Source of the DNA: a virus
Taxonomy: Duplodnaviria > Heunggongvirae > Uroviricota > Caudoviricetes
IMG/VR virus record: IMGVR_UViG_2778261463_000012
Location: 1-18,447 of that record
DNA length: 18,447 nt
Direction: 5' to 3' (one strand)
Shown: piece after piece, positions 1 through 16,795 of the stretch
How the letters are laid out: each line of letters opens with the position of its first letter
Numbering within the stretch: the first letter of the stretch is position 1
Notes under the pieces: generated by a model
What the model was told of the DNA's origin: nothing
What the model saw: the letters and a program-made list of their open reading frames with translations, nothing else
Database searches by the model: none
Translations under genes and position numbers: made by a program

Positions 1-20
1 CCATTTGATCATATGACAAG

Positions 21-587: not shown

Positions 588-596
588 ATATTACAT

Positions 597-1060: not shown

Positions 1061-1884
1061 AAAAAATTATTTTTTCTTTAGCCATTGTTCTGCCTGCCAT
1101 TGGCCTTGTCGGTTGTGATCGTGTTGAGCCTGGTAATGTGGGCATCAAAGTCAACAAACTTGGCGACGATAAAGGCGTAGGTGAAGTGGTCGGTGTTGGT
1201 CGCTACTGGACAGGCTGGAACACTGAAGTTTATATCTTCCCGACCTTTAAGCAGATGAAGACCTACGATGATCCATTCAGTTTCCAGATGAGCGATGGAA
1301 CAACCATTGGTTACCACATCGGAGTAGCCTACAAGGTTGATCCATCCAAAGTTACCACGGTGTTTCAAACCTACCGCAAAGGTGTGGATGACATTACCGA
1401 CACCGACCTGCGCCAGAAGATAGCAGATGCACTAAATCGGCTGGCCAGCAAAATGACCACTGATAAATTTATCGACGGTGGTAAATCTGAACTACTGGAT
1501 TCAGCTCTAAAAGATATTCAGGCAGAAATGACGCCCATCGGTATTCAGGTAATGAGCCTGTCTTATGTAGGTAAGCCGGAATACCCGTCAACTGTTATTG
1601 ACAGCATTAACGCTAAAGTCACGGCAAATCAGAAAACTCTTCAACGTGAGCAGGAAGTAAAACAGCGCGAAGCGGAAGCCAACATGTTGCGCGCGGAAGC
1701 TGCCGGACAGGCTGATGCGATTCGCACAAAAGCCCAGGCCGAAGCCGATGCTATTCGTTTACGCGGCGAAGCTCTGCGCCAGAACCCCGGTGTTATGGAG
1801 CTGGAAGCCATCAATAAATGGAACGGCACACTGCCGCAATACATGACCAACGGTGCCAGTACACCATTTATCCAGGTTAAATAA
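1057..1884 (+). CDS. SPFH/band-7 (prohibitin/HflC-like) family lipoprotein
   Basis: N-terminal signal peptide with lipobox (LVGC); central SPFH-like region; Ala/Glu/Arg/Gln-rich coiled-coil C-terminal segment (REQEVKQREAEANMLRAEAAGQADAIRTKAQAEADAIRLRGEAL) typical of band-7 proteins. AAGGA at 1046-1050. Confidence 0.8.
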   Translation: MKKIIFSLAIVLPAIGLVGCDRVEPGNVGIKVNKLGDDKGVGEVVGVGRYWTGWNTEVYIFPTFKQMKTYDDPFSFQMSDGTTIGYHIGVAYKVDPSKVTTVFQTYRKGVDDITDTDLRQKIADALNRLASKMTTDKFIDGGKSELLDSALKDIQAEMTPIGIQVMSLSYVGKPEYPSTVIDSINAKVTANQKTLQREQEVKQREAEANMLRAEAAGQADAIRTKAQAEADAIRLRGEALRQNPGVMELEAINKWNGTLPQYMTNGASTPFIQVK

Positions 1885-1923
1885 CTTATATGCCCGGCAA
1901 GCCGCCGGGCTAAGGGAAAGCAG

Positions 1924-2283
1924 ATGAACACTCATAATACTCAACCGAAAATAATGAACTATGACCCGAATCTGACGTCGTGCGGACGCATGGCAAAACA
2001 AACCGTTCGATTAACTTTCGGACTATGGGAATACCGCGAAACATTCGAAGTCACTGTCGGTGGCAACCTGACCGGACTCGATGTTATCAGTTGCGCTATT
2101 GAAAGCCTGTACGCAACGCTGCCTTATGAAGAAGTCGAGGATGAGCGCGATATCATAGCCACCATTAATATCGGCGGACTGGAATGCAAGGATGAAGACC
2201 TGCAGGGAGAACTCTGGCTTGCCGAGATGCTTGTATCCGCAGAAATAATCAGCATTGAGCCTGACACAGGCATACAACTCTGA
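1924..2283 (+). CDS. hypothetical acidic protein (119 aa)
   Basis: ORF co-directional with the cluster; no recognisable motif. Confidence 0.4.
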   Translation: MNTHNTQPKIMNYDPNLTSCGRMAKQTVRLTFGLWEYRETFEVTVGGNLTGLDVISCAIESLYATLPYEEVEDERDIIATINIGGLECKDEDLQGELWLAEMLVSAEIISIEPDTGIQL

Positions 2284-2313
2284 AATTCCATAAATTCAGG
2301 GAGCAATAGAAAA

Positions 2314-2556
2314 ATGTTCGCTTTGATTAATCAGGGGCAGCTATACACCGACAGTTCCGGTTACCCAATAAAAATTATTCGCTGCATAAACAGCACTGTG
2401 TTGTACAGAAGAATGGATGGGTTAACACAGTCGGTAAAAATAAACGATTTTAATGAACTGTTTGAACGGATCGATCACCAGGAATACCGACAAATTCTGG
2501 CAGAAACAGAGCAGGAAGCTCATCTGAAAAAATTACGAGCCATGAAAAGGAAGTAA
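2314..2556 (+). CDS. hypothetical protein (80 aa)
   Basis: ORF co-directional with the cluster; no recognisable motif. Confidence 0.35.
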   Translation: MFALINQGQLYTDSSGYPIKIIRCINSTVLYRRMDGLTQSVKINDFNELFERIDHQEYRQILAETEQEAHLKKLRAMKRK

Positions 2557-2712
2557 AGAATGAATAAAGCATTTGAACGATGAGTGCGCCAGCGTTATGG
2601 CAATCGCTATGACCTGACGAGAGATCTCGAAGGCTACTACTGCCGTGAAGTAGTGAAACGAATGTTTGAGGTGTGGTGTCACTGCCGCGGATAAAAGTTT
2701 TGTGAGGTAACT

Positions 2713-2928
2713 ATGTCTCTCAACATTGACTGTGTACCTATTACGACATGGTGTCGTGATATGGGAGAAACTCTGGATGCCGTTAACAAACGGTTACAAC
2801 GTGGAGTATGGGAGGAAGGGGTTCAGGTTTTAAATGTGGAAGGCTCCAAAGAACGATGGATTGATTTAACTGAGGTTTCAAAATGGGCGAGAAAAAACAA
2901 ATATCCTTATCACTCCCAAGAGGAATAA
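2713..2928 (+). CDS. putative excisionase-like small DNA-binding protein (71 aa)
   Basis: Small ORF immediately upstream of, and overlapping by 46 nt, a tyrosine integrase gene (classic xis-int arrangement). GAGGT precedes ATG 2713. Assignment is by context and size only. Confidence 0.4.
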   Translation: MSLNIDCVPITTWCRDMGETLDAVNKRLQRGVWEEGVQVLNVEGSKERWIDLTEVSKWARKNKYPYHSQEE

Positions 2929-4055
2929 CAATTCGTCAATACAAGAATTGCTCTACATTAGTTGTGACCTTCACCTATAAAGGGGTTCTTTGCAGGGAAC
3001 CCTTATCAAGGCTGGAAGTTAACGCAAAGGGGATTAAGTATGCTGAACGACTGCTCGGAGAAATAAAAAACAAAATTAGTGATGGCTCATTCGATTTTTC
3101 AGAGTACTTTCCAAACTCCAAGAAGCTTATATTATTTGGAATGGTAAAGAGGAATAAAAGTGTGAAAGATTACCTAGATGAATATTTAGAAATTTGCAAA
3201 AACAGAAAGTTATCCCCTTCAACAATAAATGGATATGAAAAATGTGTATCTGCATTATCGGAACTACATAACTTACATGTTATTGACCTGACTCCAGCAA
3301 TTTTAAAGAAATGGATTTCAAGAAGAACAACAAAACTGAAGACCATCAGAAACAATTTATCATTTTTAAGAAGCGCAGTAGATGAGGCTGTCACTGACGG
3401 ACTTATAACAATAAACCCTGTAAAACTAGTTAGTGCAAGTAGATACCATGCTGTTAACCATACAACCAATTCTGCCGAATATGAAGTAGACCCCTTTACG
3501 CCAGCAGAAGCAGCCGCTATCTACAACGCCTGTATCTATGAGGAATGGCGAAACCTTTTTTGTTTCGCATTCAATACAGGCCTTCGAAGCTCAGAATTAT
3601 GTGCATTACGTTGGTCTGATATTGATTTTATTGGTCATACCGTTCATGTACAGGTTGCTTCTGTCGTTGGTGTGATAAAAGGAACAAAAACAAAAGCTGG
3701 TACAAGAAAAGTTGAATTAAACAGTGAAGCCCTAATGGCATTACAGTCACAGAAATCATTTACGATGATGAGAAGTGCTTTTGTATTCAGTGACCCAAAG
3801 ACACGCAAACCGTGGGCTAATTCAGCAGCGATTCGTAAGAAAGCCTGGATCCCGACTCTTAAAAAAGCTGGTGTTCGTTACCGTAATCCATATCAGACCA
3901 GACATACATTCGCTACACGACATATCAGCCAGGGGGCAAATTTATTCTGGCTTGCAGGCCAAATGGGGCACAAAGGACCCGAAATGCTTTTTAGACACTA
4001 TGGTTCATATTTATCAGAATATGATGGTAATACAGCAATCTCAGAAGTAATCTAG
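2883..4055 (+). CDS. tyrosine recombinase / integrase (390 aa), AT-rich
   Basis: C-terminal catalytic region with the conserved box II pattern (RHTFATRHISQGANLFWLAGQMGHKGPEMLFRHYGSY; HxxR and terminal Tyr). Transcribed toward the ssrA-like att core at 4189-4214. Confidence 0.85.
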   Translation: MGEKKQISLSLPRGITIRQYKNCSTLVVTFTYKGVLCREPLSRLEVNAKGIKYAERLLGEIKNKISDGSFDFSEYFPNSKKLILFGMVKRNKSVKDYLDEYLEICKNRKLSPSTINGYEKCVSALSELHNLHVIDLTPAILKKWISRRTTKLKTIRNNLSFLRSAVDEAVTDGLITINPVKLVSASRYHAVNHTTNSAEYEVDPFTPAEAAAIYNACIYEEWRNLFCFAFNTGLRSSELCALRWSDIDFIGHTVHVQVASVVGVIKGTKTKAGTRKVELNSEALMALQSQKSFTMMRSAFVFSDPKTRKPWANSAAIRKKAWIPTLKKAGVRYRNPYQTRHTFATRHISQGANLFWLAGQMGHKGPEMLFRHYGSYLSEYDGNTAISEVI

Positions 4056-4188
4056 TCGCTTAAATATTTCAAAATATGTACAAAGGTAGGACACAGAATA
4101 GACCTTAACTTACACCTGAAATACATAAAAATATACAGTGAAATATGAAATCATTTGTATTTCATATTGTTATGTAATTTGGGTGTTT

Positions 4189-4214
4189 GGGTTCAACTCC
4201 CGCCAGCTCCACCA
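4189..4214 (+). other. att core: 26-nt copy of the tmRNA (ssrA) 3' end (GGGTTCAACTCCCGCCAGCTCCACCA); not a full tmRNA gene
   Basis: Exact match to the 3'-terminal 26 nt of E. coli tmRNA as I recall it, ending in CCA. The sequence upstream (4060-4188) is AT-rich and unrelated to tmRNA, so this is an attachment-site duplicate. Confidence 0.7.
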
Positions 4215-4250
4215 CTTGCTCTTCCGGATACGTCCGGAGAAATCCTGAAA

Positions 4251-4283
4251 GCCCGCATGGCACAAGCTCTGCGGGCTTTTTTG
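4251..4283 (+). terminator. rho-independent terminator (ssrA-type) downstream of att core
   Basis: Stem GCCCGCA (4251-4257) / TGCGGGC (4271-4277) followed by TTTTTT (4278-4283). Confidence 0.6.
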
Positions 4284-4326
4284 TGTCTACTGTTGTCCGA
4301 GGATATCCAGCTAAATCCAGTGATTA

Positions 4327-4378
4327 TTGGTATACGTTTAGGTATACGGTAGGATGTATACCTAAACGCGTATACCAA
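4327..4378. promoter_or_regulatory. imperfect inverted repeat of GGTATACG-containing arms immediately upstream of int; candidate Int-binding/operator site
   Basis: Left arm TTGGTATACGTTTAGGTATACG (4327-4348) and right arm GTATACCTAAACGCGTATACCAA (4356-4378) are near-perfect reverse complements. A single copy of the arm recurs at 12578-12599 near the other end of the element. Confidence 0.4.
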
Positions 4379-4398
4379 TTCATGAAGGAGCGGCCAAA

Positions 4399-5598
4399 TT
4401 GGCAAGAACGACACGCCCCCTGACCAACACAGAAGTACTGCGCGCTAAAGCGTTAGAAAAGGATCTAACGTTGCATGATGGCGATGGTCTTTTTCTACTC
4501 GTTAAAACGAACGGTAAGAAGTTATGGCGTTTCCGTTATCAACGTCCGGCAACAAAGCAGCGGACAATGATGGGGCTAGGTACCTTCCCAGCTCTTTCAC
4601 TTGCTGACGCCCGACGGTTAAGAGCGGATTACCTTTCCTTGTTAGCCAACGGAATTGACCCGCAAATTCAAGCTGAAATTGCAGAGGAACAGCAGCAAAT
4701 CGCACAGGACAGTATTTTTACAACGGTCGCCGCTAACTGGTTCCAGCTTAAAAGCAAAAGCGTAACCCCTGATTACGCAAGAGACATTTGGCGCTCATTG
4801 GAGAAAGATGTATTCCCTGCCGTTGGTGAACTCCCAGTTCAGCAAATCAAAGCCCGAACGTTGGTTGAAGCGCTTGAGCCAGTCAAAGCTCGTGGGGCGC
4901 TAGAGACTGTACGTCGGCTAGTGCAACGCATTAACGAGATAATGATCTTTGCCGTAAATACAGGGCTGATCGATGCCAATCCAGCTTCCGGGGTTGGAAT
5001 GGCCTTTGAGAAGCCAAAAAAGCAAAACATGCCAACACTACGACCAGAAGAACTACCAAATCTAATGCGTTCTTTAGCCATGTCTAATTTATCTGTATCG
5101 ACTCGCTGCCTTATCGAATGGCAGCTTCTAACACTTGTACGCCCTTCTGAAGCCTCTGGTACTCAATGGGCAGAGATCGATCTTGAGAATAAACTCTGGA
5201 CGATCCCTGCAGGACGAATGAAAGCCAAGCGAGAACATATTGTTCCTCTGTCGGTTCGAGCATTAGATATTTTAGAGATAATGAAGCCTATTAGTGCACA
5301 TCGTGAATATGTTTTCCCAAGTAGAAATAATCCTAAGCAACCAATGAATAGTCAGACAGCTAATGCTGCATTAAAAAGAATTGGTTATGGAGGAAAGCTT
5401 GTTGCACATGGTTTGCGTTCTATAGCCAGTACAGCTATGAATGAGGAAGGTTTTAATCCCGATGTTATTGAAGCAGCATTAGCGCATAGCGATAAAAATG
5501 AAGTCCGTAAAGCATATAATCGTTCGACTTACCTTTATCAACGAATTGATTTAATGAATTGGTGGGCTAACTTCGTGTTTAAAAAAACACACGAATAG
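4399..5598 (+). CDS. int: P4-type tyrosine integrase (399 aa, TTG start)
   Basis: AAGGAG at 4385-4390 then TTG 4399. N-terminus MARTTRPLTNTEVLRAKA...DGDGLFLLV and C-terminal HGLRSIASTAMNEEGF...ALAHSDKNEVRKAYNRSTY match the P4/CP4-57 integrase architecture. Sits directly downstream of the ssrA 3'-end att core. Confidence 0.9.
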   Translation: MARTTRPLTNTEVLRAKALEKDLTLHDGDGLFLLVKTNGKKLWRFRYQRPATKQRTMMGLGTFPALSLADARRLRADYLSLLANGIDPQIQAEIAEEQQQIAQDSIFTTVAANWFQLKSKSVTPDYARDIWRSLEKDVFPAVGELPVQQIKARTLVEALEPVKARGALETVRRLVQRINEIMIFAVNTGLIDANPASGVGMAFEKPKKQNMPTLRPEELPNLMRSLAMSNLSVSTRCLIEWQLLTLVRPSEASGTQWAEIDLENKLWTIPAGRMKAKREHIVPLSVRALDILEIMKPISAHREYVFPSRNNPKQPMNSQTANAALKRIGYGGKLVAHGLRSIASTAMNEEGFNPDVIEAALAHSDKNEVRKAYNRSTYLYQRIDLMNWWANFVFKKTHE

Positions 5599-5611
5599 CC
5601 CACATAAAATA

Positions 5612-5634
5612 AGAGGCTGCTCAATGCAGCCATT
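5612..5634. terminator. probable bidirectional terminator between convergent int and cargo operon
   Basis: Hairpin GGCTGC (5615-5620) / GCAGCC (5626-5631), flanked by A-rich sequence upstream and T-rich downstream on the + strand. Confidence 0.4.
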
Positions 5635-6379
5635 ATTTCAATGAATTAATATACGTATTTAATCCTGTTGATTTTATAACTCCCATCACTTCTGGTGATT
5701 TTTTCAAATAAACAACATTAGGCCATGACAGATAAGCAATAATAATACATATTAGTCGAACCATTGCAAAATCAGACAGATTAATGAGAGTTTCAATATA
5801 CATATGTTTATCTTGCTCATCGAAACCATTTTCAGTTATAACTTCATTATCAACAAGTTTAACTGCAAGATAAAACCTTCTTGCAAATGAAAACATCTTA
5901 TCATCAGATTTATCATCTAATGATTCAATTATTTTAATCAAAGCATCTTCAGCAATACCTCTTTGAATACTGGTTTTAATCAGTTGCTCAAGTTTATTTA
6001 CAGCATTAACCTTTTTAACTTCAAAATCACCACTTGGAGATGGAAAAATCAAAGAGAAATCATCAAAAGCACTTTTTTGCGCGTTAATTAAATTATAAAA
6101 TTGAAATTCAAATGACTTCCTTTTATCAAGAAACTCCTGTCTTTTAGTCTCATTAATTAAACATTCATTCGCAGTTAATTGCATTTTAACTGATTTAATT
6201 AGAAGTAATATTGAAATGAAACTCAATATAGGATTAAGAACACCTCCAAAATAATCACCAAACTGTCCCCATATCTCTTTGTTTTCAGAAAGAGTGGTTG
6301 AGCTTCCACCAAATTGATAATAGTATAATCCAAAGACTACTAATATCAAAATAGATGTAACCCAACCTATATACCTCAT
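5633..6379 (-). CDS. membrane-anchored protein of unknown function (248 aa); downstream gene of the two-gene cargo operon
   Basis: Two N-terminal hydrophobic helices (IGWVTSILILVVFGLYYY and VLNPILSFISILLLIKSV) flank a Gly/aromatic-rich motif (WGQFGDYFGG); charged, probably helical C-terminal domain. Start overlaps the stop of the upstream gene (ATGA). GAGGTGG RBS. AT-rich. Confidence 0.65.
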   Translation of the reverse strand: MRYIGWVTSILILVVFGLYYYQFGGSSTTLSENKEIWGQFGDYFGGVLNPILSFISILLLIKSVKMQLTANECLINETKRQEFLDKRKSFEFQFYNLINAQKSAFDDFSLIFPSPSGDFEVKKVNAVNKLEQLIKTSIQRGIAEDALIKIIESLDDKSDDKMFSFARRFYLAVKLVDNEVITENGFDEQDKHMYIETLINLSDFAMVRLICIIIAYLSWPNVVYLKKSPEVMGVIKSTGLNTYINSLK

Positions 6380-7197
6380 ACCCCATCCACCTCAATAATT
6401 AAGTATTTCACTACCTCACCATTACTGATGGTTAAATCTCTAACTTTTAATAACAAATACTCTCGCTCTTCTTCTGCCAGTCTATTGTTAGCATCTAGAT
6501 TACTCGTTATTTTCTTGGTCTGGGCATCAGTAACGTATTTTAGACCATTCAAAAAACCAAAAGAAGTCGTTTTTTCTTCCCCCCTGACTAACAGTCTACC
6601 ATTTCCAGTAAAAGTATTAAACCTAGTAACTATAGCTTCTATCTGATGATCATGATTAGTTTCAATTAGCTCAGTTATATTCAAAGCGGTATTTTTGTTT
6701 AAAGTAATTATCTTTTGCTTCTCACCCGGCTTTCTATAATTCAAATCAACTGAATAGTTGCACATGGTGGAAATTTTATGCATATTTTTAAGTCTATTTC
6801 GAATAGCTTTAGTCAACTCATCTTCAATATCGTCTAATCCGGAAACCACTTTTTTTGCAGCGTCACTCAATGCCGGACCTTCTAAAAAAAGAGACTCATA
6901 AATATAATAACTCATAACTTCTGCAAATACAGTGCGAGTCATACTTGAAAGACGCGCTGCAACTTTTCTATCTGATATAACAACATCAAATCGCTGACCA
7001 AAAGAGCCTGTAAAAGAATGCTTAAGGTTTGTTCTTATTTCATTAGATTGATGTCTGTTTTCTTTAACTTTACCTCGAAGTATTGCCTCTGTAATAATAC
7101 TGGTAACTCCAGATGCACCCAATAGTGTCTGGAGAGCATAATCCATATCTATTTCATCGTCGCCGCTATTGATAACCAAATCAAGACTAACTTTCAT
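6376..7197 (-). CDS. protein of unknown function (about 273 aa); upstream gene of the two-gene cargo operon
   Basis: ORF track gives 6376-7245, but GGGGAAA precedes the ATG at 7197 (MKVSLDLV...), which I prefer as the start. Soluble; no Walker or other catalytic motif I can assign. AT-rich, unlike the P4 backbone. Confidence 0.6.
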   Translation of the reverse strand: MKVSLDLVINSGDDEIDMDYALQTLLGASGVTSIITEAILRGKVKENRHQSNEIRTNLKHSFTGSFGQRFDVVISDRKVAARLSSMTRTVFAEVMSYYIYESLFLEGPALSDAAKKVVSGLDDIEDELTKAIRNRLKNMHKISTMCNYSVDLNYRKPGEKQKIITLNKNTALNITELIETNHDHQIEAIVTRFNTFTGNGRLLVRGEEKTTSFGFLNGLKYVTDAQTKKITSNLDANNRLAEEEREYLLLKVRDLTISNGEVVKYLIIEVDGV

Positions 7198-7333
7198 TAT
7201 TTCCCCACGAATTGATAAAAATCTGCTCAATGAATAAAAGTCCATATTTTTATACAGTAATCAAACTTCCAATGTCTAAAATATGCAAACACATTAAACT
7301 AAATTTATGATAGTGATCAACATATTGCGCGCA

Positions 7334-7352
7334 GTGCTTTCCCCGCCTCGCC
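7334..7352 (-). other. P2/P4-type cos site (19-nt cohesive-end sequence)
   Basis: + strand reads GTGCTTTCCCCGCCTCGCC, the reverse complement of the P2/P4 cohesive end GGCGAGGCGGGGAAAGCAC as I recall it. Located just beyond the 3' end of psu, as in P4. Confidence 0.65.
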
Positions 7353-7455
7353 CGCCCGCTTTGTGGGGCGGTTTTAATGCAGTTGTACTGACACGCTCAG
7401 ACTGCGCCGGGAATGGCGCGGTCTGCAGAAAATGAGGCAGGGAAACGCATGCAAA

Positions 7456-7486
7456 GCCATGCACCTTATCGATGCATGGCTTTTTT
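7456..7486 (+). terminator. rho-independent terminator-like hairpin between cos and psu
   Basis: Stem GCCATGCA (7456-7463) / TGCATGGC (7473-7480), loop of 9 nt, then TTTTTT (7481-7486). The reverse strand has only a short T-run. Confidence 0.45.
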
Positions 7487-7516
7487 CAGTAAAAACGGGC
7501 GGATTTTCGGGGAATT

Positions 7517-8089
7517 TTACACAGACTGACGTGATGCCAGTTGCGCACTTTTACGCGAAAAAATCATGTTCTGCGCAGGGGTGAATTTTTCACGGCTGTC
7601 ATCCACCGAAGCCGCGTCAGGCCTGAATCCGATGGTCGTTAAAATGTCGCTATCCTGTGCGGAATAATTAATTTTTTCCCCCTTCGCAAGCCAGGACAGA
7701 AGGGCTTCACGCAGGGCATCTGTGGCACGCTGTATGGCACAGTTTCGGGCAATGGCCGTCAGCTCACTGTAGCCCATCAGCTCCGGTGCCAGTGCGGCCG
7801 CCAGTGCTGTGCCGTGCTGCTGCATAAAATCATTCAGCCGGTCGCGGATGCTGATGTGCTGAACGGCTTCATGCGAACGAATATAACGACCGGCAGCCTG
7901 ATTCACCTGCCATTTTCTGACTTCGATAATATTGCGTAATTCGTCCAGGCGACTGACGTTTCTGCCTTCCCCGGACAGAAGCCGCAGATATTCCTGTTCG
8001 GCCGCAGCCAGCTCATTTTTGCGTTGCAGCCATGCTGCTTTGTTATTCTGACAGGTGTCAAAGGCCTGCTGTAAGGCTGTGCTTTCCAT
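7517..8089 (-). CDS. psu: Psu, polarity suppression / capsid decoration protein (190 aa)
   Basis: 190-aa protein (MESTALQQAFDTCQNNKAAWLQRKNELAAAEQEY...) of P4 Psu length and sequence character, in the conserved position after delta in the sid-delta-psu block and adjacent to cos. Confidence 0.85.
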   Translation of the reverse strand: MESTALQQAFDTCQNNKAAWLQRKNELAAAEQEYLRLLSGEGRNVSRLDELRNIIEVRKWQVNQAAGRYIRSHEAVQHISIRDRLNDFMQQHGTALAAALAPELMGYSELTAIARNCAIQRATDALREALLSWLAKGEKINYSAQDSDILTTIGFRPDAASVDDSREKFTPAQNMIFSRKSAQLASRQSV

Positions 8090-8162
8090 CGTTATCTCTT
8101 TCTCATCATGCTGAAGAATAAAAATACGGTGTGCGGCGACGGCCGGTGTTAACCGGCAGCCC

Positions 8163-8663
8163 TCATTCCAGACGCAGCGAATATGATTGTGTTTTTAAGC
8201 GTACTGGCGGCAGTTCCTGTTTTTCATGCAGGCTTTCTGCCAGTTCGTCCGGCGTGACCGGGCGGACAATAAAACGGTTGATGGTCTGAAGCGTTTTAAA
8301 CACCAGACCACATCCCGGATCCGTGCACACATAAAAACGCTCGGTGACTTCCTGAGACAGACGCCGCGATGTTCTTGACAGTGCAAGGCCTTTACATCTC
8401 CGACAACAATATCCGGTAACAAGCATTCTTTTCGGGCGTTTCATACTGCCGGAGGCTGACGTCAGTGAATCGCGGTATCTCTGTTTGCCTGAAATGTATT
8501 CCATTCCTGAATCTTTACTGTCAGAGAAAAAGCTTTCACTCGCTTCAAATGTCGCAGAGCAATAAATATTCCGGCACTGTGCAATCATTATCTTGGTGCC
8601 ATCGTCCATGAAATGTGCGCGGCGGGTGTGAGCAACATGTCCACACGACGGGCAGTAAATCAT
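8163..8663 (-). CDS. delta: Delta, Ogr/Delta-family zinc-finger late transcriptional activator (166 aa from MIYCPSCGH)
   Basis: Ogr-like zinc-finger motifs (CPSCGH...QCRNIYCSATF, and a second CCRRC...CTDPGCG half), consistent with the duplicated-Ogr architecture of P4 Delta. The ORF track starts at 8720; I prefer the internal ATG at 8661-8663, giving 166 aa. Confidence 0.8.
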   Translation of the reverse strand: MIYCPSCGHVAHTRRAHFMDDGTKIMIAQCRNIYCSATFEASESFFSDSKDSGMEYISGKQRYRDSLTSASGSMKRPKRMLVTGYCCRRCKGLALSRTSRRLSQEVTERFYVCTDPGCGLVFKTLQTINRFIVRPVTPDELAESLHEKQELPPVRLKTQSYSLRLE

Positions 8664-8956
8664 GACAGCAGTCCTCTGGCCTTCAGCTCTGCTCCCTGCT
8701 GGTCTATTTTGTCCTGCCACACCTTGCGCTGTGCCGGTGTGCCTGCCACCTCATAATCCATGTGCGGGAGTGTTGCCGCTGACAGTCCGGCCAGCCGGAG
8801 AACCGGCTCGCCGCTGAGGCTGATTTGTATCTGTTTAATTTTCTGTTCCAGCGATGATTTCACCTGCTGCATGACAGCCTTTTCCGGTGCGACGTAGCCC
8901 TGATGGCCGGTGGTGTTGGCGAGCGGATTTTCCTGTACCAGAATGCTCAGATGCAT
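8660..8956 (-). pseudogene. sid: sid-like ORF, probably 5'-truncated (98 aa from its only ATG; frame open without a start up to a stop at 9116-9118)
   Basis: Occupies the position of sid directly upstream of and overlapping delta. My translation of the upstream frame finds no ATG/GTG/TTG before the stop at 9116-9118, so at most about 152 codons remain, against 244 aa for P4 Sid. Identity rests on position, not motif. Confidence 0.4.
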
Positions 8957-9489
8957 TGCCCGGACAAGCGCCTCACAGGTTTCATTCAGGGCGTGTTCCA
9001 GCTCATGCTCTGCATACAGACTCAGCAGGTGATGATGTGCCTTCCGGTATCCTTGTGCGTATCCTCGCTGACGGGCGCACCACAGACATCCCGCTGGGGC
9101 GTTTTCTGCGGGAATTTACCTGTGACCGTCCTGACCTGTTCAAACGCAGCCCCGTAAACCGGCATGCGGTACTGAAAGAAATGGCCGGAGACCCGGAATT
9201 ACAGAAATGGCGGGAGAAATATCTGGATATTTACCCGCAGGAGCCTGTTCCGGTCAGCCGGGAAGCACCGGTGGCGCGGGAATGGCGGGAAATTCCCCGC
9301 ACGGAGCCTGACCCGGAAATCACACCGGATAACAGTTACCGCAATTATCTGTAATTAAAAAACGACACCCGAAAAATTAAATGTGCGTATTCGCGCAGGG
9401 ATACGCACGTCTTCAGGAGACGCAGATATGCCTTATCAGTTAATGCAACCGGCACGGAATTCAGTCATCTGTCACAGGGAGGAAAGCAA

Positions 9490-9810
9490 ATGAAAACACC
9501 CTTACCGCCCGTCTTACGCGCTGCCCTTTACCGTCGCGCTGTCGCCTGTGCCTGGCTGACCGTGTGCGAACGTCAGCACCGCTACCCGCATCTCACCCTT
9601 GAGTCACTGGAGGCGGCCATCGCCGCTGAGCTGGAAGGCTTTTATCTGCGCCAGCACGGTGAGGAAAAAGGGCGTCAGATAGCCTGTGCCCTGCTGGAAG
9701 ATTTAATGGAATCCGGCCCCCTGAAGGCCGCGCCGTCGCTGTCCTTTCTCGGGCTGGTTGTGATGGATGAACTCTGTGCCCGTCACATAAAAGCGCCGGT
9801 ACTGCACTGA
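9490..9810 (+). CDS. small conserved protein upstream of alpha (106 aa)
   Basis: GGAGG at 9479-9483 precedes ATG 9490. GC-rich codon usage like the P4 backbone; ends 15 nt before the alpha start. In P4 a small ORF occupies the equivalent position; exact identity not verified. Confidence 0.55.
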
Positions 9811-9824
9811 AGGAGAACAACACC

Positions 9825-12158
9825 ATGAAAATGAACGTAACCGCCACCGTCAGCCATGCGCTCGGCCACTGGCCGCGTATTCTCCCGGCGCTGGGGATTC
9901 AGGTGCTGAAGAACCGTCATCAGCCCTGTCCGGTCTGTGGCGGGAGTGACCGCTTCCGTTTTGATGACAGGGAGGGGCGCGGCACCTGGTACTGCAATCA
10001 GTGTGGTGCCGGTGACGGCCTGAAACTGGTTGAAAAGGTGTTTGGTGTCTCCCCGTCCGACGCGGCCGCAAAAGTGGCTGCCGTGACCGGCAGCCTGCCC
10101 CCGGCTGACCCGGCAGTGACGGCTGCCGCCGGTGCTGAAACAGACGCTGCCCGGAAGAACGCAGCCGCACTGGCACAAACCCTGATGGCGAAAACCTGTC
10201 CCGGAACCGGTAACGCCTACCTGACCCGCAAGGGCTTTCCCGGCCGGGAATGCCGGATGCTGACCGGCACACACAGAGCCGGTGGCGTGAGCTGGCGCGC
10301 CGGTGACCTTGTGGTGCCACTGTATGACGACAGCGGCGAACTGGTTAACCTTCAGTTAATCAGTGCTGACGGCCGTAAGCGCACTCTGAAAGGCGGACAG
10401 GTCAGGGGCACCTGTCACACCTTTGAAGGACAGAATCAGGCCGGAAAACGTCTGTGGATAGCGGAGGGATACGCGACCGCACTTACCGTGCATCACCTGA
10501 CCGGTGAAACGGTGATGGTGGCGCTTTCTTCCGTGAACCTCCTTTCTCTGGCCAGCCTTGCCCGGCAGAAGTATCCGGCCTGTCAGATTGTCCTTGCCGC
10601 AGACCGTGACCTCAGCGGTGACGGCCAGACAAAAGCCGCCGCAGCCGCAGATGCGTGTGAGGGCGTTGTTGCCCTGCCGCCGGTCTTCGGTGACTGGAAT
10701 GATGCCTTCACGCAGTACGGCGGGGAGGCCACCCGTAAGGCCATTTACGATGCCATCCGGCCACCGGCTGAAAGCCCGTTCGACACCATGAGCGAAGCGG
10801 AGTTTTCCGCCATGAGTACCAGCGAAAAGGCCATGCGTATCTATGAGCATTACGGCGAGGCGCTCGCGGTCGATGCCAACGGCCAGCTTCTGTCCCGCTA
10901 TGAAAATGGTGTCTGGAAGGTGCTGCCGCCACAGGACTTTGCCCGGGATGTGGCCGGGCTGTTTCAGCGTCTGCGCGCGCCGTTCTCCTCCGGGAAGGTG
11001 GCCTCCGTGGTGGACACCCTGAAGCTGATTATTCCGCAGCAGGAAGCCCCCTCCCGCCGCCTGATTGGCTTTCGTAACGGCGTGCTCGACACGCAGAACG
11101 GCACGTTCCACCCGCACAGTCCGTCACACTGGATGCGCACCCTGTGCGATGTGGATTTCACCCCGCCGGTGGACGGTGAAACGCTGGAGACCCACGCCCC
11201 CGCGTTCTGGCGCTGGCTTGACCGTGCCGCCGGTGGCCGTGCGGAAAAACGCGACGTGATTCTGGCCGCACTGTTTATGGTGCTGGCGAACCGCTACGAC
11301 TGGCAGCTCTTTCTGGAGGTGACCGGTCCCGGCGGCAGCGGCAAAAGTATCATGGCCGAAATAGCCACCCTGCTGGCCGGGGAGGATAACGCCACGTCGG
11401 CCACCATCGAGACGCTGGAATCCCCGCGTGAACGTGCCGCGTTAACTGGCTTCTCACTGATACGCCTGCCGGACCAGGAAAAATGGAGCGGCGACGGTGC
11501 CGGACTCAAGGCCATCACCGGCGGCGATGCGGTGTCCGTGGACCCGAAATACCGGGATGCGTACTCCACGCATATCCCGGCGGTGATTCTGGCCGTGAAC
11601 AATAACCCGATGCGCTTCACCGACCGCAGCGGCGGCGTGTCACGCCGGCGGGTGATTATTCACTTCCCGGAACAGATAGCCCCGCAGGAGCGCGACCCGC
11701 AGCTTAAGGACAAAATCACCCGCGAGCTGGCGGTCATCGTGCGTCACCTGATGCAGAAGTTCAGCGACCCGATGCTCGCCCGGTCACTGCTTCAGTCCCA
11801 GCAGAACTCAGACGAGGCACTGAACATCAAACGGGATGCCGACCCGACGTTTGATTTTATCGGCTATCTGGAAACCCTGCCGCAGACCAGCGGCATGTAT
11901 ATGGGGAACGCCAGTATCATCCCGCGCAATTACCGTAAATACCTCTATCACGCCTATCTGGCCTACATGGAGGCAAACGGCTACCGGAATGTACTCAGCC
12001 TGAAAATGTTCGGGCTGGGGCTGCCGGTGATGCTGAAGGAATACGGACTGAATTACGAGAAGCGCCATACCAAACAGGGGATACAGACCAACCTGACGCT
12101 GAAAGAGGAAAGCTACGGCGACTGGCTGCCAAAATGTGACGACCCTGCAACAACCTGA
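9825..12158 (+). CDS. alpha: P4 alpha-type primase-helicase (777 aa)
   Basis: N-terminal zinc-binding motif (CPVCGGSDRFRF...WYCNQCGAGDG), a TOPRIM-like primase region (LWIAEGYATALT...VLAADRDLSGDGQ) and a Walker A box (TGPGGSGKS) of a C-terminal helicase domain. Length equals that of P4 alpha; followed by terminator and crr repeats. Confidence 0.9.
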   Translation: MKMNVTATVSHALGHWPRILPALGIQVLKNRHQPCPVCGGSDRFRFDDREGRGTWYCNQCGAGDGLKLVEKVFGVSPSDAAAKVAAVTGSLPPADPAVTAAAGAETDAARKNAAALAQTLMAKTCPGTGNAYLTRKGFPGRECRMLTGTHRAGGVSWRAGDLVVPLYDDSGELVNLQLISADGRKRTLKGGQVRGTCHTFEGQNQAGKRLWIAEGYATALTVHHLTGETVMVALSSVNLLSLASLARQKYPACQIVLAADRDLSGDGQTKAAAAADACEGVVALPPVFGDWNDAFTQYGGEATRKAIYDAIRPPAESPFDTMSEAEFSAMSTSEKAMRIYEHYGEALAVDANGQLLSRYENGVWKVLPPQDFARDVAGLFQRLRAPFSSGKVASVVDTLKLIIPQQEAPSRRLIGFRNGVLDTQNGTFHPHSPSHWMRTLCDVDFTPPVDGETLETHAPAFWRWLDRAAGGRAEKRDVILAALFMVLANRYDWQLFLEVTGPGGSGKSIMAEIATLLAGEDNATSATIETLESPRERAALTGFSLIRLPDQEKWSGDGAGLKAITGGDAVSVDPKYRDAYSTHIPAVILAVNNNPMRFTDRSGGVSRRRVIIHFPEQIAPQERDPQLKDKITRELAVIVRHLMQKFSDPMLARSLLQSQQNSDEALNIKRDADPTFDFIGYLETLPQTSGMYMGNASIIPRNYRKYLYHAYLAYMEANGYRNVLSLKMFGLGLPVMLKEYGLNYEKRHTKQGIQTNLTLKEESYGDWLPKCDDPATT

Positions 12159-12174
12159 CCATCATGACTCATCT

Positions 12175-12199
12175 GACCGGCATCTGCCGGTCTTTTTTT
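12175..12199 (+). terminator. rho-independent terminator of alpha
   Basis: Stem GACCGG (12175-12180) / CCGGTC (12187-12192) followed by TTTTTTT (12193-12199). Confidence 0.6.
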
Positions 12200-12216
12200 A
12201 TCCCTGAATTCCCCGA

Positions 12217-12515
12217 AGGTGAACAATCCACTGTTCACCCTTCACCGTATATTCACCCGTTATCACACTGAAATTAAAAGAGAAAAACGAAAGGTGAACA
12301 GTGTGAACAATCAAATCAAAAAAAACTTTTTTTCTCCCTGTGTGATTTCAGTACGGGGGATTAATCACCGGTATGAGTCACACCGGCAGAATGCCGGAGG
12401 TGAAGAATCGAATGTTCACCCTTCACCCATTATTCACCACCTATCACTCTGAAATAAAAGGAGAAAATCAAAGAGTGAACAGTGTGAACAGTTCTTTCGA
12501 AAAAAAATTTTTTTC
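12217..12515. repeat. crr-like region: two direct repeats of about 120 bp about 60 bp apart, carrying TGTTCACC/GGTGAACA iterons
   Basis: Unit 1 about 12217-12335 and unit 2 about 12398-12515 align almost base for base (e.g. ATGTTCACCCTTCACC... and ...GTGAACAGTGTGAACA... followed by A-run/T-run). This matches the P4 crr organisation and the alpha-binding octamer TGTTCACC. Confidence 0.7.
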
Positions 12516-12577
12516 CTGTACGATATAGCATCAATCCAAGTAAAAATGCGCTTTCATTTCACATTAACTTACAGCCA

Positions 12578-12599
12578 TTGGTATACGATTAGGTATACG
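12578..12599. promoter_or_regulatory. single copy of the GGTATACG-containing arm repeat (candidate Int arm-type site) near the right end of the P4-like element
   Basis: TTGGTATACGATTAGGTATACG differs by one base from the left arm at 4327-4348. Confidence 0.35.
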
Positions 12600-12652
12600 C
12601 ACAAAAACTGAATTAAACAAAATCGTTAAAAATCAAAGCGATACAATATTTA

Positions 12653-12674
12653 TTCAAACTCCGCCAGCCCACCA
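12653..12674 (+). other. degenerate second copy of the tmRNA 3'-end att core (TTCAAACTCCGCCAGCCCACCA)
   Basis: Related to 4192-4214 with a few substitutions/indels, ending in CCA, followed by the same type of terminator and by a second P4-type integrase gene. Confidence 0.55.
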
Positions 12675-12710
12675 ATTTTTGATATATTGAAGTTCAGTGA
12701 AGTCTATCAA

Positions 12711-12742
12711 GCCCGCATGGAACCAGCCTTGCGGGCTTTTTT
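12711..12742 (+). terminator. rho-independent terminator (ssrA-type) after second att core
   Basis: Stem GCCCGCA (12711-12717) / TGCGGGC (12730-12736) followed by TTTTTT (12737-12742); near-identical to the stem at 4251-4277. Confidence 0.55.
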
Positions 12743-12840
12743 ACGTCTATAGTAGTCTACCGAGAATTGCTAGAATCTACTCGTTATGGCACCCTTTTTG
12801 GGACCCAACACAAAGGGTCCAAAACATGAGGGTCCCAAAC

Positions 12841-14070
12841 ATGGCAAAAATCGCTAAGAAGCTCACTGACACTGAAATCAAAAGCACCAAACCTGCCGAG
12901 AAAGAGGTTAACCTTTTTGACGGCGATGGTTTGCTCCTGCGAATCGCCCCCTTAGCGAAGGGAGGAAAGAAAAATTGGTATTTCAGATATGCAGTGCCTG
13001 TGACCAAAAAGCGAACTAAGGTGAGCTTAGGAACCTATCCTCACCTTACACTTGCGAAGGCACGAGCTTTACGTGATGAGTACTTGTCGTTGCTTGCAAA
13101 TGGTATAGACCCACAAGTTCATAACACCCACAAAGCCAATGCCCTTAAGGATGCAACGGAACATACATTTCAAGCAGTAGCCAAGAAGTGGCTTGATGAG
13201 AAAGTCAAAACGTCAGGCATCTCCCAGGATCATGCTAACGACATCTGGCGAAGCCTAGAGAGAAATATCTTTCCAACGTTGGGTGATACCCCCATTAAGG
13301 AGATTCGCCCTAAAATGCTTAAACAGCATTTAGACCCCATAGAAAAACGAGGTGTCCTTGAAACACTTCGCCGCGTCATATCCCGCCTGAATGAAATTTT
13401 CCGCTATGCAGCAACAGAAGAACTCATAGAATTCAATCCGGCTGACAACCTGGGGCAACGGTTCAGCAAGCCAAAAAAACAGAATATGCCAGCATTACCC
13501 CCTTCCGAACTCCCCCGCTTCCTGGTTGCTCTAAACAATGCTTCTATCCGTTTAGAAACAAGGCTACTGATTGAGTGGCAACTTCTCACATGGGTTCGCC
13601 CTGGTGAAGCTGTTCGCACAAGATGGTCAGATATTGATATAGAAACCAGCATGTGGAACATCCCGGCGGAGTTTATGAAAATGAAGAAGCCTCACAAAGT
13701 TCCACTGAGCAAAGAATCTTTGCGAGTCTTGGATTCAATGAAAGCCATCAGCGGGCATAGAGAGTGGGTTTTTCCCAGTATCAAAGCTCCACTCAATCAC
13801 ATGCATGAACAAACAGCTAATGCGGCTATAATCCGTATGGGCTTCGGAGGTGAGCTTGTAGCTCATGGTATGCGATCAATCGCTAGAACGGCGGCTGAGG
13901 AGTGTGGCAAGTTTAGAACTGATGTCTTAGAAGCCGCCCTTGCCCACTCGAAAAAAGATGAAATAATTGCAGCCTACAATCGTGCAGAGTATCTCACAGA
14001 ACGTGTGGTTCTCATGCAATGGTGGAGTGACTATGTTTCGTCTCAAAAATACAAAGTTATTGCCGCATAA
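12841..14070 (+). CDS. int: P4-type tyrosine integrase, second copy (409 aa from MAKIAKKL)
   Basis: The ORF is open from 12697, but the N-terminus MAKIAKKLTDTEIKSTKPAEKEVNLFDGDGLLLRI aligns with the start of the integrase at 4399, and GAGGG precedes ATG 12841. C-terminal catalytic region HGMRSIARTAAEE...ALAHSKKDEIIAAYNRAEY. Paralog of the 4399-5598 integrase, clearly diverged. Confidence 0.85.
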   Translation: MAKIAKKLTDTEIKSTKPAEKEVNLFDGDGLLLRIAPLAKGGKKNWYFRYAVPVTKKRTKVSLGTYPHLTLAKARALRDEYLSLLANGIDPQVHNTHKANALKDATEHTFQAVAKKWLDEKVKTSGISQDHANDIWRSLERNIFPTLGDTPIKEIRPKMLKQHLDPIEKRGVLETLRRVISRLNEIFRYAATEELIEFNPADNLGQRFSKPKKQNMPALPPSELPRFLVALNNASIRLETRLLIEWQLLTWVRPGEAVRTRWSDIDIETSMWNIPAEFMKMKKPHKVPLSKESLRVLDSMKAISGHREWVFPSIKAPLNHMHEQTANAAIIRMGFGGELVAHGMRSIARTAAEECGKFRTDVLEAALAHSKKDEIIAAYNRAEYLTERVVLMQWWSDYVSSQKYKVIAA

Positions 14071-14352
14071 CTCTTCCATGATGGGTTAACTATCTTGATT
14101 TATTTGAAGAATTAATGATCACACCATTAACCTATGTGGACTAAGCATAGCCATTTACAAATGGGTACCTTGAGGCCACATAACGAAAGCTGTCGGTCAT
14201 ATCAGCTAAATAATTCACATCTCTTCTCGATTATCATACACCTCGAAGAACTACCAAATTCGCTCTAATCAATGATAAAACAGTTGAATTCGGTTAAAAT
14301 TTGATCAATTTTATCCTCTACATTGTATTGAATCATCCATGAGGTTTTGTGC

Positions 14353-15909
14353 ATGGCTAGCGGAAATGAAAAAAATCATAGAGTTAGGGTCGCACAGTAC
14401 TTGAGGATGTCTACCGACCATCAGCAATATTCTTTACATAATCAGTCTGAATATATCAAAGATTATGCTGAAAAGAACAATATGGAAATCGCTTATACCT
14501 ACGATGATGCAGGTAAGAGCGGAGTCAGTATCGTAGGCAGGCATTCTTTGCAGCAGTTACTTAGCGATGTAGAACAAAAGAAAATAGATATACAGGCTGT
14601 ATTATTTTATGATGTGAGCCGTTTTGGTCGTTTTCAAAATAGTGATGAAGCTGCATATTATTCCTTTCTATTTGAAAGAAATGGTGTAGATCTTATATAT
14701 TGTTCCGAACCTATACCCACTAAAGATTTCCCTTTAGAGTCCTCTGTTATACTGAATATAAAAAGATCAAGTGCTGCATATCACAGCAGGAATCTATCTG
14801 AAAAGGTATTTATAGGGCAAGTAAATTTAATAAAGCTTGGTTATCATCAAGGCGGTATGGCTGGTTATGGGCTGAGACGTCTTTTAGTAGACGAAAATGG
14901 CATAGCTAAAGAAATATTGAATTTCCGCAAAAGAAAGAGTATTCAAACAGATAGGGTAATATTAATTCCGGGACCAAAAAATGAAATAAAAATTGTAAAT
15001 AGAATCTATGATCTCTTTATAGATAGTAACGTCCCAGAATTCATTATTGCTGAGAGATTAAATGAACAGAGCATACCTGCAGAAAATGGAACATCATGGA
15101 CTCGTGCAAAAATACATCAAATTTTGACAAATGAAAAATATATTGGAAACAACATATATAACAAAACCTCATCTAAACTAAAAAGTAAGCTTGTAAAAAA
15201 CCCCAAACATGAATGGATTAGATGTGACAAGGCATATAAACCAATTATTTCAAAGAAAAAATATAATAAAGCTCAAGAAATAATTCAGCTCCGATCCATT
15301 CATTTGACTAATGAAGATCTATTAGAAAAGCTAAAAGAAAAATTAGAATCTAATGGAAAACTATCAGGCTTTATCATTGATGAAGATGATACAGGCCCTT
15401 CATCTTCTGTTTATAGAACCCGATTTGGTGGTCTTTTAAGAGCATATACTTTGATTGGTTATAAGCCAGAACATGATTACAGCTATCTCCAAATAAATGA
15501 AGCACTAAGATCATTTTACTCAGAGATAATTGAGGATTTTAAGGGCGAAATATTAAAAAGTAACTGTCATATAGACGAGTATAAATATTACCCAATGCTT
15601 TACATCAATGATGAGTTTTTAATTTCCGTCCTTGTTACTAAATGCATACATATGAAATCAGGTAAACTTAGATGGAAAGTCCGGTTTGATAACTCACAGA
15701 AAGCAGACATAACAATTGTTATACGAATGAATTCACAAAATATTTCACCTCTTGATTTTTATATCATACCAAAGATTGAAAACGAATATAGTAAAATGTG
15801 TATGATGGAAACAAACAACATTCGGTTAGATCTCTATAGATTTGATAATCTTGATAAATTTCTACAAATTATTACTCGCATGAAAGTGAGGGAACTATAT
15901 GCTGCCTGA
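14353..15909 (+). CDS. large serine recombinase (about 518 aa)
   Basis: N-terminal resolvase-type catalytic domain (VAQYLRMSTDHQ with the presumptive catalytic Ser; YDDAGKSG; DVSRFGR) and a recombinase domain (GYGLRR...SWTRAKIHQILTNEKYIGN), then a long C-terminal extension. GAGG at 14341-14344 precedes ATG 14353 (ORF track starts at TTG 14347). Very AT-rich. Confidence 0.8.
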   Translation: MASGNEKNHRVRVAQYLRMSTDHQQYSLHNQSEYIKDYAEKNNMEIAYTYDDAGKSGVSIVGRHSLQQLLSDVEQKKIDIQAVLFYDVSRFGRFQNSDEAAYYSFLFERNGVDLIYCSEPIPTKDFPLESSVILNIKRSSAAYHSRNLSEKVFIGQVNLIKLGYHQGGMAGYGLRRLLVDENGIAKEILNFRKRKSIQTDRVILIPGPKNEIKIVNRIYDLFIDSNVPEFIIAERLNEQSIPAENGTSWTRAKIHQILTNEKYIGNNIYNKTSSKLKSKLVKNPKHEWIRCDKAYKPIISKKKYNKAQEIIQLRSIHLTNEDLLEKLKEKLESNGKLSGFIIDEDDTGPSSSVYRTRFGGLLRAYTLIGYKPEHDYSYLQINEALRSFYSEIIEDFKGEILKSNCHIDEYKYYPMLYINDEFLISVLVTKCIHMKSGKLRWKVRFDNSQKADITIVIRMNSQNISPLDFYIIPKIENEYSKMCMMETNNIRLDLYRFDNLDKFLQIITRMKVRELYAA

Positions 15910-16795
15910 AAAAAATGAATTCCCAATAATTCAAATTGAGATTGCAAAAATAAAATTTCTTAACCCACGAACAAGAAATAAGGTAGTGCATGAAGAAATA
16001 AAGGAAAGCATAAAAAAAAGAGGATTAAGCAAGCCTATAAGCGTAAGAGCTATTGATGAAGACGATTTCAAATATGCTTTAATTTGTGGTCAAGGGAGAA
16101 TAGAGGCTCTTGTTGCATTAGGTGAAACTATTATTCCAGCAATTATAAGAGATGTATCAGAAGAAGATGCTTACGTTATGAGTTTAGTTGAAAACATTGC
16201 AAGGAGAAGACCACGTTCTAATGAGTTATTACAGGTGATTAAAGACATGAAAATCAGAGGACTTTCAGACTCCGAAATAAGTGAGATTACTGGATATTCA
16301 TCGAACTGGGTGAGCAGTATTAATATGCTTCTTGATAAGGGAGAGCATAAACTTCTCTCAGCAGTCGAACGGGGTAATTTGCCTCTGTATCTCGCAGTGC
16401 AATTTGCAAGATGTGAAACTGAGGAAGCACAAGATATTCTTACCGAAGCATATGATAAAAAATTAATAAAAAGTCGGGACATTATAAAGATAAAATACAT
16501 TCTAAATCAAAGAACAGTTGGGAATAAAGGTGCAAAAGCAGCCGGATTTTATTATCACAAACCATCAAAAAGGATGACTGCAGAGGAGTTGATTGAGCTT
16601 TATGAAAATAGTATCGCTGAACATAAATCTGTTTATAACAACTCGAAATTTATAAAAACCAATCTACTAATAATAAATGAGATTTTTAACATCATAATGA
16701 TGAATAAAAGCTTTCAAAATATACTTGAACAAGAGAATCTTTCAGAACTACCATCTCAGATATTAAACCCAGTAAACAAAGAGGTATCAAAATGA
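15899..16795 (+). CDS. ParB/Srx-superfamily (ParB N-terminal domain-like) protein, paralog 1 (298 aa)
   Basis: ParB-like N-terminal motifs (PISVRAIDEDDFKYALICGQGRIEAL; ENIARR). Start overlaps the recombinase stop by 11 nt; RBS GTGAGGGA. Confidence 0.7.
   Translation: MLPEKNEFPIIQIEIAKIKFLNPRTRNKVVHEEIKESIKKRGLSKPISVRAIDEDDFKYALICGQGRIEALVALGETIIPAIIRDVSEEDAYVMSLVENIARRRPRSNELLQVIKDMKIRGLSDSEISEITGYSSNWVSSINMLLDKGEHKLLSAVERGNLPLYLAVQFARCETEEAQDILTEAYDKKLIKSRDIIKIKYILNQRTVGNKGAKAAGFYYHKPSKRMTAEELIELYENSIAEHKSVYNNSKFIKTNLLIINEIFNIIMMNKSFQNILEQENLSELPSQILNPVNKEVSK

Follow-up and report, generated by a model that had tools for sequence, protein, structure and literature searches.

What occupies the short interval between sid and alpha in this P4-like element, a new regulatory module or the remains of a known one? 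The DNA that we analysed is a stretch of 18,447 nucleotides (here called the window), positions 1 to 18,447 of the virus record IMGVR_UViG_2778261463_000012. An earlier note on it had described a truncated sid, an unexplained plus-strand open reading frame (ORF) in place of the 5' part of sid, a possible regulatory hairpin and an interval to alpha so short that the immunity and derepression genes appeared reduced or replaced. The comparisons described below give a simpler answer, namely that a well-known satellite lost one piece of DNA in a single step, and that P4 sequence accounts for both the ORF and the hairpin. Taken as a whole, the data are best explained by a P4-like prophage at ssrA that one recent 2,182-bp deletion would have turned into an immobilised remnant, a reading to which we give a probability of a little under 0.9.

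The window contains three islands in series, each headed by an integrase (ORF map and Pfam). The integrase of the first lies at 2883-4055. The third is headed by a P4-family integrase (12697-14070), behind which come a serine recombinase and two ParB/RepB-like genes. At the left end of the middle island stands a 26-nt copy of the ssrA (tmRNA) 3' end (4189..4214, plus strand), which equals the final 26 nt of the ssrA gene of Escherichia coli strain E3; this copy is the core of the left attachment site, and collinearity between the window and the E3 locus begins with it. Next to it lies a P4-family tyrosine integrase of 399 aa (4399..5598, plus strand; Pfam Arm-DNA-bind_3, Phage_int_M and Phage_integrase), the same gene that stands beside ssrA in E3. 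Two cargo genes encoding 248 and 289 aa (5633..7245, minus strand) fill the int-cos hotspot, at the position of the P4 defence hotspot (PMC8628076, PMC9122126). No Pfam or NCBIfam family was found for either cargo protein, and the 289-aa protein had only a weak PADLOC match (PDC-S25, E=1.2e-5).

From the cos region onward the window is P4 DNA. The cos segment (7325..7371) represents the joined ends of the P4 genome, window 7325-7352 corresponding to P4 28-1 and the sequence from 7353 on to P4 11624 downward, and P4 homology continues to 12513, where it stops, with 98% identity over 7325-12513 (BLAST, NC_001609). As in phage P4 (NC_001609 / X51522), the order is cos-psu-delta-sid ... orf151-cnr-alpha-crr. 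On the minus strand, psu (7517..8089, 190 aa, 189/190 residues identical to P4 Psu; Pfam Psu, E=1e-88) and delta (8163..8663, 166 aa, 163/166 identical to P4 Delta; Pfam Ogr_Delta) are intact, in agreement with the earlier note; on the plus strand the same holds for cnr, or orf106 (DUF5375; 9490..9810, 106/106 identical; Pfam DUF5375), and for the alpha primase-helicase of 777 aa (9825..12158, 767/777 identical), beyond which lie crr-like repeats of the cis replication region (12213..12518; BLAST, P4 4291-4590). In a sister contig (L004) the element directly adjoins smpB-ssrA, with a flank 99.9% identical to E. coli. From these matches we identify the middle island as a satellite prophage of the P4 type, inserted in E. 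coli at the 3' end of ssrA. It differs from P4 in its integrase and attachment site (ssrA, versus leuX in P4), in the hotspot cargo that takes the place of gop-beta-cII, and in the absence of P4 7745-9927.

This last difference accounts for the short interval. BLAST against P4 gave two collinear arms, window 7353-9049 matching P4 11624-9928 (98.4% identity) and window 9047-12513 matching P4 7747-4291 (98.0%), and about 2.18 kb of P4 DNA, the immunity region included, is absent between them. The arms overlap by three bases, GTA (9047..9049), against both P4 and E3, and the junction alignment contains zero bases of foreign DNA. The distance from the sid end (9049) to the alpha ATG (9825) is 776 bp, compared with 2,614 bp between the sid and alpha ATGs of P4, so that the shortening noticed earlier is real and only its size, estimated at about 700 bp, needs a slight correction. 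The immunity and derepression genes are indeed missing; the suggestion that they were replaced fails, as nothing foreign lies at the junction.

E. coli strain E3 has an intact twin of the element at its ssrA (NZ_CM130010.1, 1129597-1140078, a span of 10,482 bp); the integrase, the cargo, the attachment site and the adjoining island are those of the window. This locus matches the entire 8.3-kb satellite at 99.9% in two pieces, and over both arms its identity to the window is 99.95%, with two mismatches in the 4,861-bp left arm and two in the roughly 3,290 bp of the right arm (to the crr region). E3 carries exactly 2,182 bp more, at 7751-9932 in the coordinates of the intact E3 locus (L009, used below for all breakpoints), and this one deletion is the single structural difference between the window element and the intact satellite. 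It is a recent event that joined sid codon 115/116 to orf151 codon 50, sealed at the 3-nt GTA microhomology by illegitimate recombination. The element would be a clean, dated case, four SNPs from its intact twin, of a satellite immobilised in one step with its integrase and hotspot cargo kept intact.

The deleted piece holds far more than the start of sid. At its coding ends it takes away sid codons 1-115 (exactly 345 nt) and orf151 codons 1-49; between them, by the annotation of P4 and E3, lie Psid (the -10 for sid), the ori iterons, PLL and PLE, together with the genes orf88/vis (alpA, HTH), kil/Icd (an Icd-like ORF) and the epsilon homologue. The P4 ori repeats (P4 9176-9413) fall inside the interval, so that of the P4 replicon parts the ori with its type I iterons, located between orf88 and sid, is missing while crr and alpha are kept. 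The CI/C4-type RNA gene of the PLE-epsilon interval has gone as well: in the intact E3 locus Rfam detects C4 (74.9 bits, L009 9170-9257) and IsrK (66.8 bits, 8985-9062), both within the deleted piece, whereas neither C4 (RF01695) nor IsrK (RF01394) was found in the window at the gathering threshold, and no Rfam RNA at all was found in window 8600-9900 even at E<=1. E3, unlike the window, thus retains a full-length sid, HTH/vis, the Icd-like ORF, the epsilon homologue, a full orf151 and both RNAs. The earlier note had weighed the loss in terms of capsid-size redirection; it overlooked ori, Psid, PLE and PLL in the deleted piece, and the loss far exceeds size redirection.

The plus-strand ORF that had been called unexplained is a product of the same junction. 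It is present as described (8887-9354, plus strand, 155 codons), with a GTG start and an in-frame internal ATG at 9181-9183, and its second half looked protein-like for a good reason: ORF residues 54-155 are identical to P4 ORF151 residues 50-151 at 97 of 102 positions. The orf151 remnant itself occupies 9050..9354 on the plus strand (residues 50/51-151 and the stop), and the first 52 codons of the ORF are antisense sid, a stretch that by accident has no stop and shares the frame of orf151. The ORF therefore belongs to a known gene but does not contain all of it; on phrog_10748 it covers only positions 50-151 of 151, and the full-length 151-aa orf151 product is absent. On sister contigs gene callers start it at GTG 9037, at the junction, giving 105 aa, and an exact-product search with the 155-aa sequence found no record. 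We consider the in-frame fusion of antisense sid with orf151 to be chance.

On the minus strand, sid is truncated as claimed, and alignment to P4 shows that only codons 116-244 and the stop are left (8660..9049; the translation YRKAHHH...ARGLLS* equals P4 Sid 116-244). The frame runs from TAA at 9116-9118 to the stop at 8660-8662, with 151 open codons and 98 aa from the first ATG. The stop at 9116-9118 and the ATG at 8954-8956 (Met147) had both been correctly read, and the latter is the most upstream one; it is not the only one, since in-frame ATGs follow at 8870-8872 and 8759-8761. On the PHROG Sid profile the remnant covers positions 112-241 of 242. The stem of Sid (residues 11-137) is a coiled coil whose trimerisation at the threefold axes forces the T=4 lattice, residues 139-189 form a dimer knot, and helix alpha6 binds gpN (cryo-EM, PMC7552001). 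DNA coding for the dimerisation knot (139-189) and for the gpN-binding helix alpha6 (219-224) is still present, with 126/129 residues equal to P4 by reading of the translation, with Psid gone and with the 98-aa ORF beginning at residue 147. The coiled-coil stem is not retained, residues 1-115 being deleted and translation being possible only from Met147, and a Sid remnant without its stem and readable only from that methionine would be unable to redirect capsid size. The loss of this function proposed in the earlier note thus agrees with the structural work (PMC7552001). Neither of the two ORFs, the one of 98 aa in sid or the one of 155 codons on the plus strand, is a gene; both are by-products of the junction, and in annotation the 98-aa "sid" and the ORFs of 105/155 codons should be entered as pseudogene fragments of sid and orf151.

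All coordinates of the earlier note hold to within one base. The palindrome had been placed at 9382-9409; it exists, one base further in at 9383..9408 (plus strand), as a perfect 8-bp stem (GTGCGTAT at 9383-9390 and ATACGCAC at 9401-9408) around a 10-nt loop. The same dyad is present in P4, and it was already annotated in Lin's 1984 P4 record (X02534.1, 3656-3690) as 'imp. region of dyad symmetry'. Its stems are invariant in all 15 copies examined, one loop change occurring in one locus, and because they are invariant in all relatives examined there is no covariation evidence for the hairpin across the 15 copies. The 9355-9489 intergenic region folds no better than its shuffles (z = -1.16), and the palindrome has no Rfam match. 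It is the normal orf151-cnr intergenic dyad of P4.

These observations leave very little room for a functional reduced satellite in which a new small RNA or protein module in 8887-9489 had replaced P4 immunity, a reading that drew on the open 155-codon frame and the hairpin only. It is already contradicted by the sequence: 9050-9489 matches P4/E3 throughout at 98-100% identity, first as the 3' part of orf151 and then as the spacer before cnr, and antisense sid supplies the N-terminal third of the ORF; the hairpin is unchanged in intact P4, and no Rfam match appears at E<=1. Defective P4-like satellite is the appropriate label for the element, rather than variant with a new immunity module.

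An assembly artefact at the junction is equally improbable. Multi-copy P4-like elements can mislead assemblers in general, although nothing specific points to this here, and the junction recurs in other assemblies. An exact-product search found the same 98-aa sid ORF in at least 24 Logan contigs (62 index blocks), and the identical 38-mer across the junction was present in 6/6 loci fetched from those contigs, which come from different runs and are 99.97-99.99% identical to the window; moreover, analogous junctions exist in two complete RefSeq chromosomes. The exact junction was not found in 5,426 complete E. coli genomes, and neither the junction 38-mer nor a 22-mer matched GTDB representative genomes, IMG/VR or JGI metagenomes. 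The accessions of all Logan carriers fall between SRR3112 and SRR3114. The junction is thus real and recent, and it appears to be confined to one lineage.

What the deletion would mean for the satellite can be read from P4 genetics. By position, the promoters of the leftward operon would have to lie between sid and cI/epsilon and Psid upstream of sid, so that both cnr-alpha and delta-psu would have been left without a known promoter. Together with the loss of ori, this most likely makes the element an immobilised remnant. Replication from ori and the building of small capsids should not be possible, and the means to set up or lift immunity, to derepress a helper and to assist excision would be absent. 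The parts most likely still expressed are the integrase and the hotspot cargo (5633-7245), because the left arm carries only two mismatches to E3 and these genes have their own context. A simple and insensitive consensus scan found no strong sigma-70 site near 8600-9500 that might act as a new junction promoter. In the 1984 record X02534.1, however, a '-10 consensus' is annotated where orf151 stops (about window 9350-9355), and this could supply some transcription of cnr-alpha. As cos, crr, int and alpha are intact, some helper-dependent behaviour is formally conceivable.

The left end of the deletion proved to be shared with other alleles. Truncations of sid are rare, the best sid copy being truncated in 5/979 complete genomes with sid. 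Nevertheless, 5 of the 10 independent deletion alleles that we collected have their left breakpoint at the same nucleotide, L009 7750 = P4 9928, and differ in their right ends. In the window the right end is L009 9933, after GTA. In strain 3PT, which together with GmM062 is one of the two complete genomes best covering both arms, it is L009 10273, in the orf151-cnr dyad (…GTGCGTA/TTCGCG, the slash marking the break), and P0044 is a second source of this type of junction. In GmM062 it is the start of the Icd-like ORF, with a 2-nt overlap checked against an intact relative (L017), and in the metagenome contig QZLR01000695.1 it is alpha codon 5/6 (…GAACGTA/ACC). The fifth allele, GCA_015473065.1, came from a protein search; its sid, at only 68% nucleotide identity, breaks off at the corresponding codon, directly against the ATG of a decayed integrase. 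Where the right end could be read (four alleles), it lies after GTA in three and after TA in one, the frequency of GTA in the interval being 0.9%. The QZLR01000695.1 allele was obtained by a pattern search targeted at the breakpoint (the left flank, with the 22-mer at sid nt 345 being GGTGATGATGTGCCTTCCGGTA, then any base but G), which accounts for one allele in the set (L012); among the untargeted alleles 4/9 share the nucleotide. The other five have left ends at L009 7667 (10-nt overlap), 7709, 7607 (4-nt overlap), 7178 and 7095, the last two found among 78 IMG/VR loci, 74 of which are intact. For one locus (L013) the right flank had no BLAST match among E. coli genomes and an intact right-hand reference was not recovered.

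The sharing of one nucleotide by 5/10 alleles (4/9 untargeted), with different right ends, is far beyond chance and points to a deletion hot spot in sid. One account of it, which accepts the deletion and refines its origin, is that the DNA is broken or arrested in a site-specific way at sid nt 345/346, where replication may be blocked, a nick introduced or a pseudo-site used by a recombinase, and that this fixed end then becomes ligated to any GTA or TA on offer downstream. To this account we give a slightly better than even chance. The five alleles with the same sid end and the preference for GTA or TA at the right ends speak for it, as does the presence of 4/9 untargeted alleles at one nucleotide position; the alleles are few, however, and one of them came from a targeted search. 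Moreover, no enzyme or structure is tied to the site. The DNA fold at the breakpoint (z from -0.9 to 0) gave no sign of a hairpin or cruciform, the site bears only a weak and unconvincing likeness to GCGCCTCG/GAGTCC, where P2 gpA nicks, and no IS was found at the junctions. A comparison of the breakpoint with the P4 attP core and arm repeats and with the ori iterons returned only a 9-nt partial core match, CCG(G)AAGGC, which belongs to the leuX-type core that these ssrA-type elements, carrying different integrases, do not use.

The pattern bears a resemblance to deletions described elsewhere. Illegitimate recombination has reportedly been found anchored at nick or arrest sites by Michel, Ehrlich and Bierne, as at the origins of rolling-circle replicons and at a terB deletion hot spot; such deletions resemble those in sid in having one fixed end, variable second ends and 2-3-nt microhomology. 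We know of no nickase, Ter site or replication block at sid nt 345, and none is detectable in the sequence there. The broader proposal, that sid nt 345/346 (…GTGCCTTCCGGTA/GGCGG…) is a site-specific break or arrest point that repeatedly seeds one-sided deletions of the replication and immunity core, is tentative, and we think it less likely than not. If true, some activity that nicks, recombines or blocks the replication of these elements would have gone unrecognised, encoded by the satellite, its helper or the host, and satellites could regularly be inactivated in this way, with fixation of their cargo in the chromosome. A literature search found no paper describing a breakpoint hot spot in sid and none mentioning P4 orf151. 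The hot spot is a modest side result, and it is at the same time the only part of the finding that could lead to something new.

It is also conceivable, though we think it rather unlikely, that the deleted form was selected, in that loss of kil/Icd, ori and the helper-responsive promoters would stabilise the island with its cargo in the chromosome and would explain why the lineage is widespread in the sequencing runs. Such domestication would fit the intact int and cargo genes, with only 2 mismatches to E3 over the 4,861-bp left arm, the report of defective P4-like elements with conserved defence genes (PMC13586616), and the fact that at least ten independent deletions take out the same region. 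The carriers, however, are 99.97-99.99% identical and come from one accession range, so that clonal sampling explains their number. They also decay further, one (L004) having lost the 3' half of alpha in a second deletion and two (L005, L008) having split cargo ORFs, and the searches for a defence function of the cargo gave only the weak PADLOC match to PDC-S25. For the many runs that contain the deleted lineage, either clonal sampling or selection for the deleted form could account.

For classification, P4-like satellites are recognised by seven markers, namely int, psu, delta, sid, alpA, epsilon and alpha (PMC8628076), four of which are intact in the window element (int, psu, delta, alpha), while sid is a fragment and alpA (orf88/vis) and epsilon, both within the missing L009 7751-9932 / P4 7745-9927, are absent. 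It resembles types B and C of de Sousa and Rocha and the 'UGRs with P4 markers' of PMC13586616 in that the core is partly lost and the integrase and hotspot cargo are intact; types B and C, however, allow at most two missing markers, whereas here 3/7 were hit by a single event, and by its gene content the element falls below types A-C of the seven-marker scheme. Defective P4-like elements with conserved hotspot or defence genes are a documented class (PMC13586616, PMC8628076), and the defective element of the window fits this reported class.

An identical left breakpoint in sid (…CCGGTA|) was found in five independent deletion alleles from diverged P4-like elements. It lies at window 9049, corresponding to position 7750 of L009, the intact twin satellite of E. 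coli strain E3, and to P4 9928, and it recurs at position 4450 in E. coli 3PT (L010), at 3391 in strain GmM062 (L011), at 5051 on the reverse strand of metagenome contig QZLR01000695.1 (L012), which came from a search targeted at the breakpoint, and at 7102/7103 in GCA_015473065.1 (L013). The right ends vary among these alleles, most of them falling directly 3' of GTA. The pattern points to a deletion hot spot at this position in sid. One diverged lineage of satellites, whose Sid is about 60% identical, has sid divided into ORFs of 147 and 98 aa at the same Met147 (L015 4265-5001; L016 197-933); here a frameshift or an interrupting stop, and not a deletion, accounts for the split, and the int-cos cargo site of these elements holds a reverse-transcriptase gene.

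Other junctions were observed in loci sharing the sid breakpoint. The 3PT remnant carries two further deletions, one of psu/delta and one running from cnr to the next integrase, with junctions at 3752-3760 and 4688-4697. Their overlaps are 9-10 nt, whereas the junction at the sid site has 3 nt, and they are ordinary repeat-mediated junctions. In L013, the 12-nt CCATTACCGTCA (GACGGTAATGG on the opposite strand) spans the sid/integrase junction, and a second copy is located about 50 nt away, within the integrase remnant (7049-7060 and 7099-7110, sid-sense strand); this repetition may be a coincidence or the trace of a more complex event. Additional changes were also present in some contigs carrying the sid-orf151 junction of the window. 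L004 has a second deletion that starts in the middle of alpha and reaches the next island's att site (window 11119-12659 absent). The gene calls of L005, L006 and L008 show cargo or alpha ORFs broken up by indels of one base, which may reflect genuine decay or errors in the sequencing.

Downstream of ssrA, a gene itself outside the window, three integrase-led islands stand in tandem (integrases at window 2883-4055, 4399-5598 and 12697-14070), with att copies at window 4189-4214 and about 12660-12676. L004 differs from the window in that the first island is missing and the satellite lies directly at ssrA. The int-cos site is occupied by a two-gene cargo (window 5633-7245, minus strand), and the left arm including this pair shows 2 mismatches in total with respect to strain E3. 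The 289-aa product has a weak PADLOC match to PDC-S25 (E=1.2e-5) and the 248-aa product a membrane-like segment at its N-terminus; no Pfam or NCBIfam family was found for either, and we consider them a candidate defence pair. The island following the satellite (window 14347-17688) encodes a large serine recombinase of 520 aa, which IS1 interrupts in strains E3 and 3PT, and then two 298-aa proteins with ParB_N/RepB domains.
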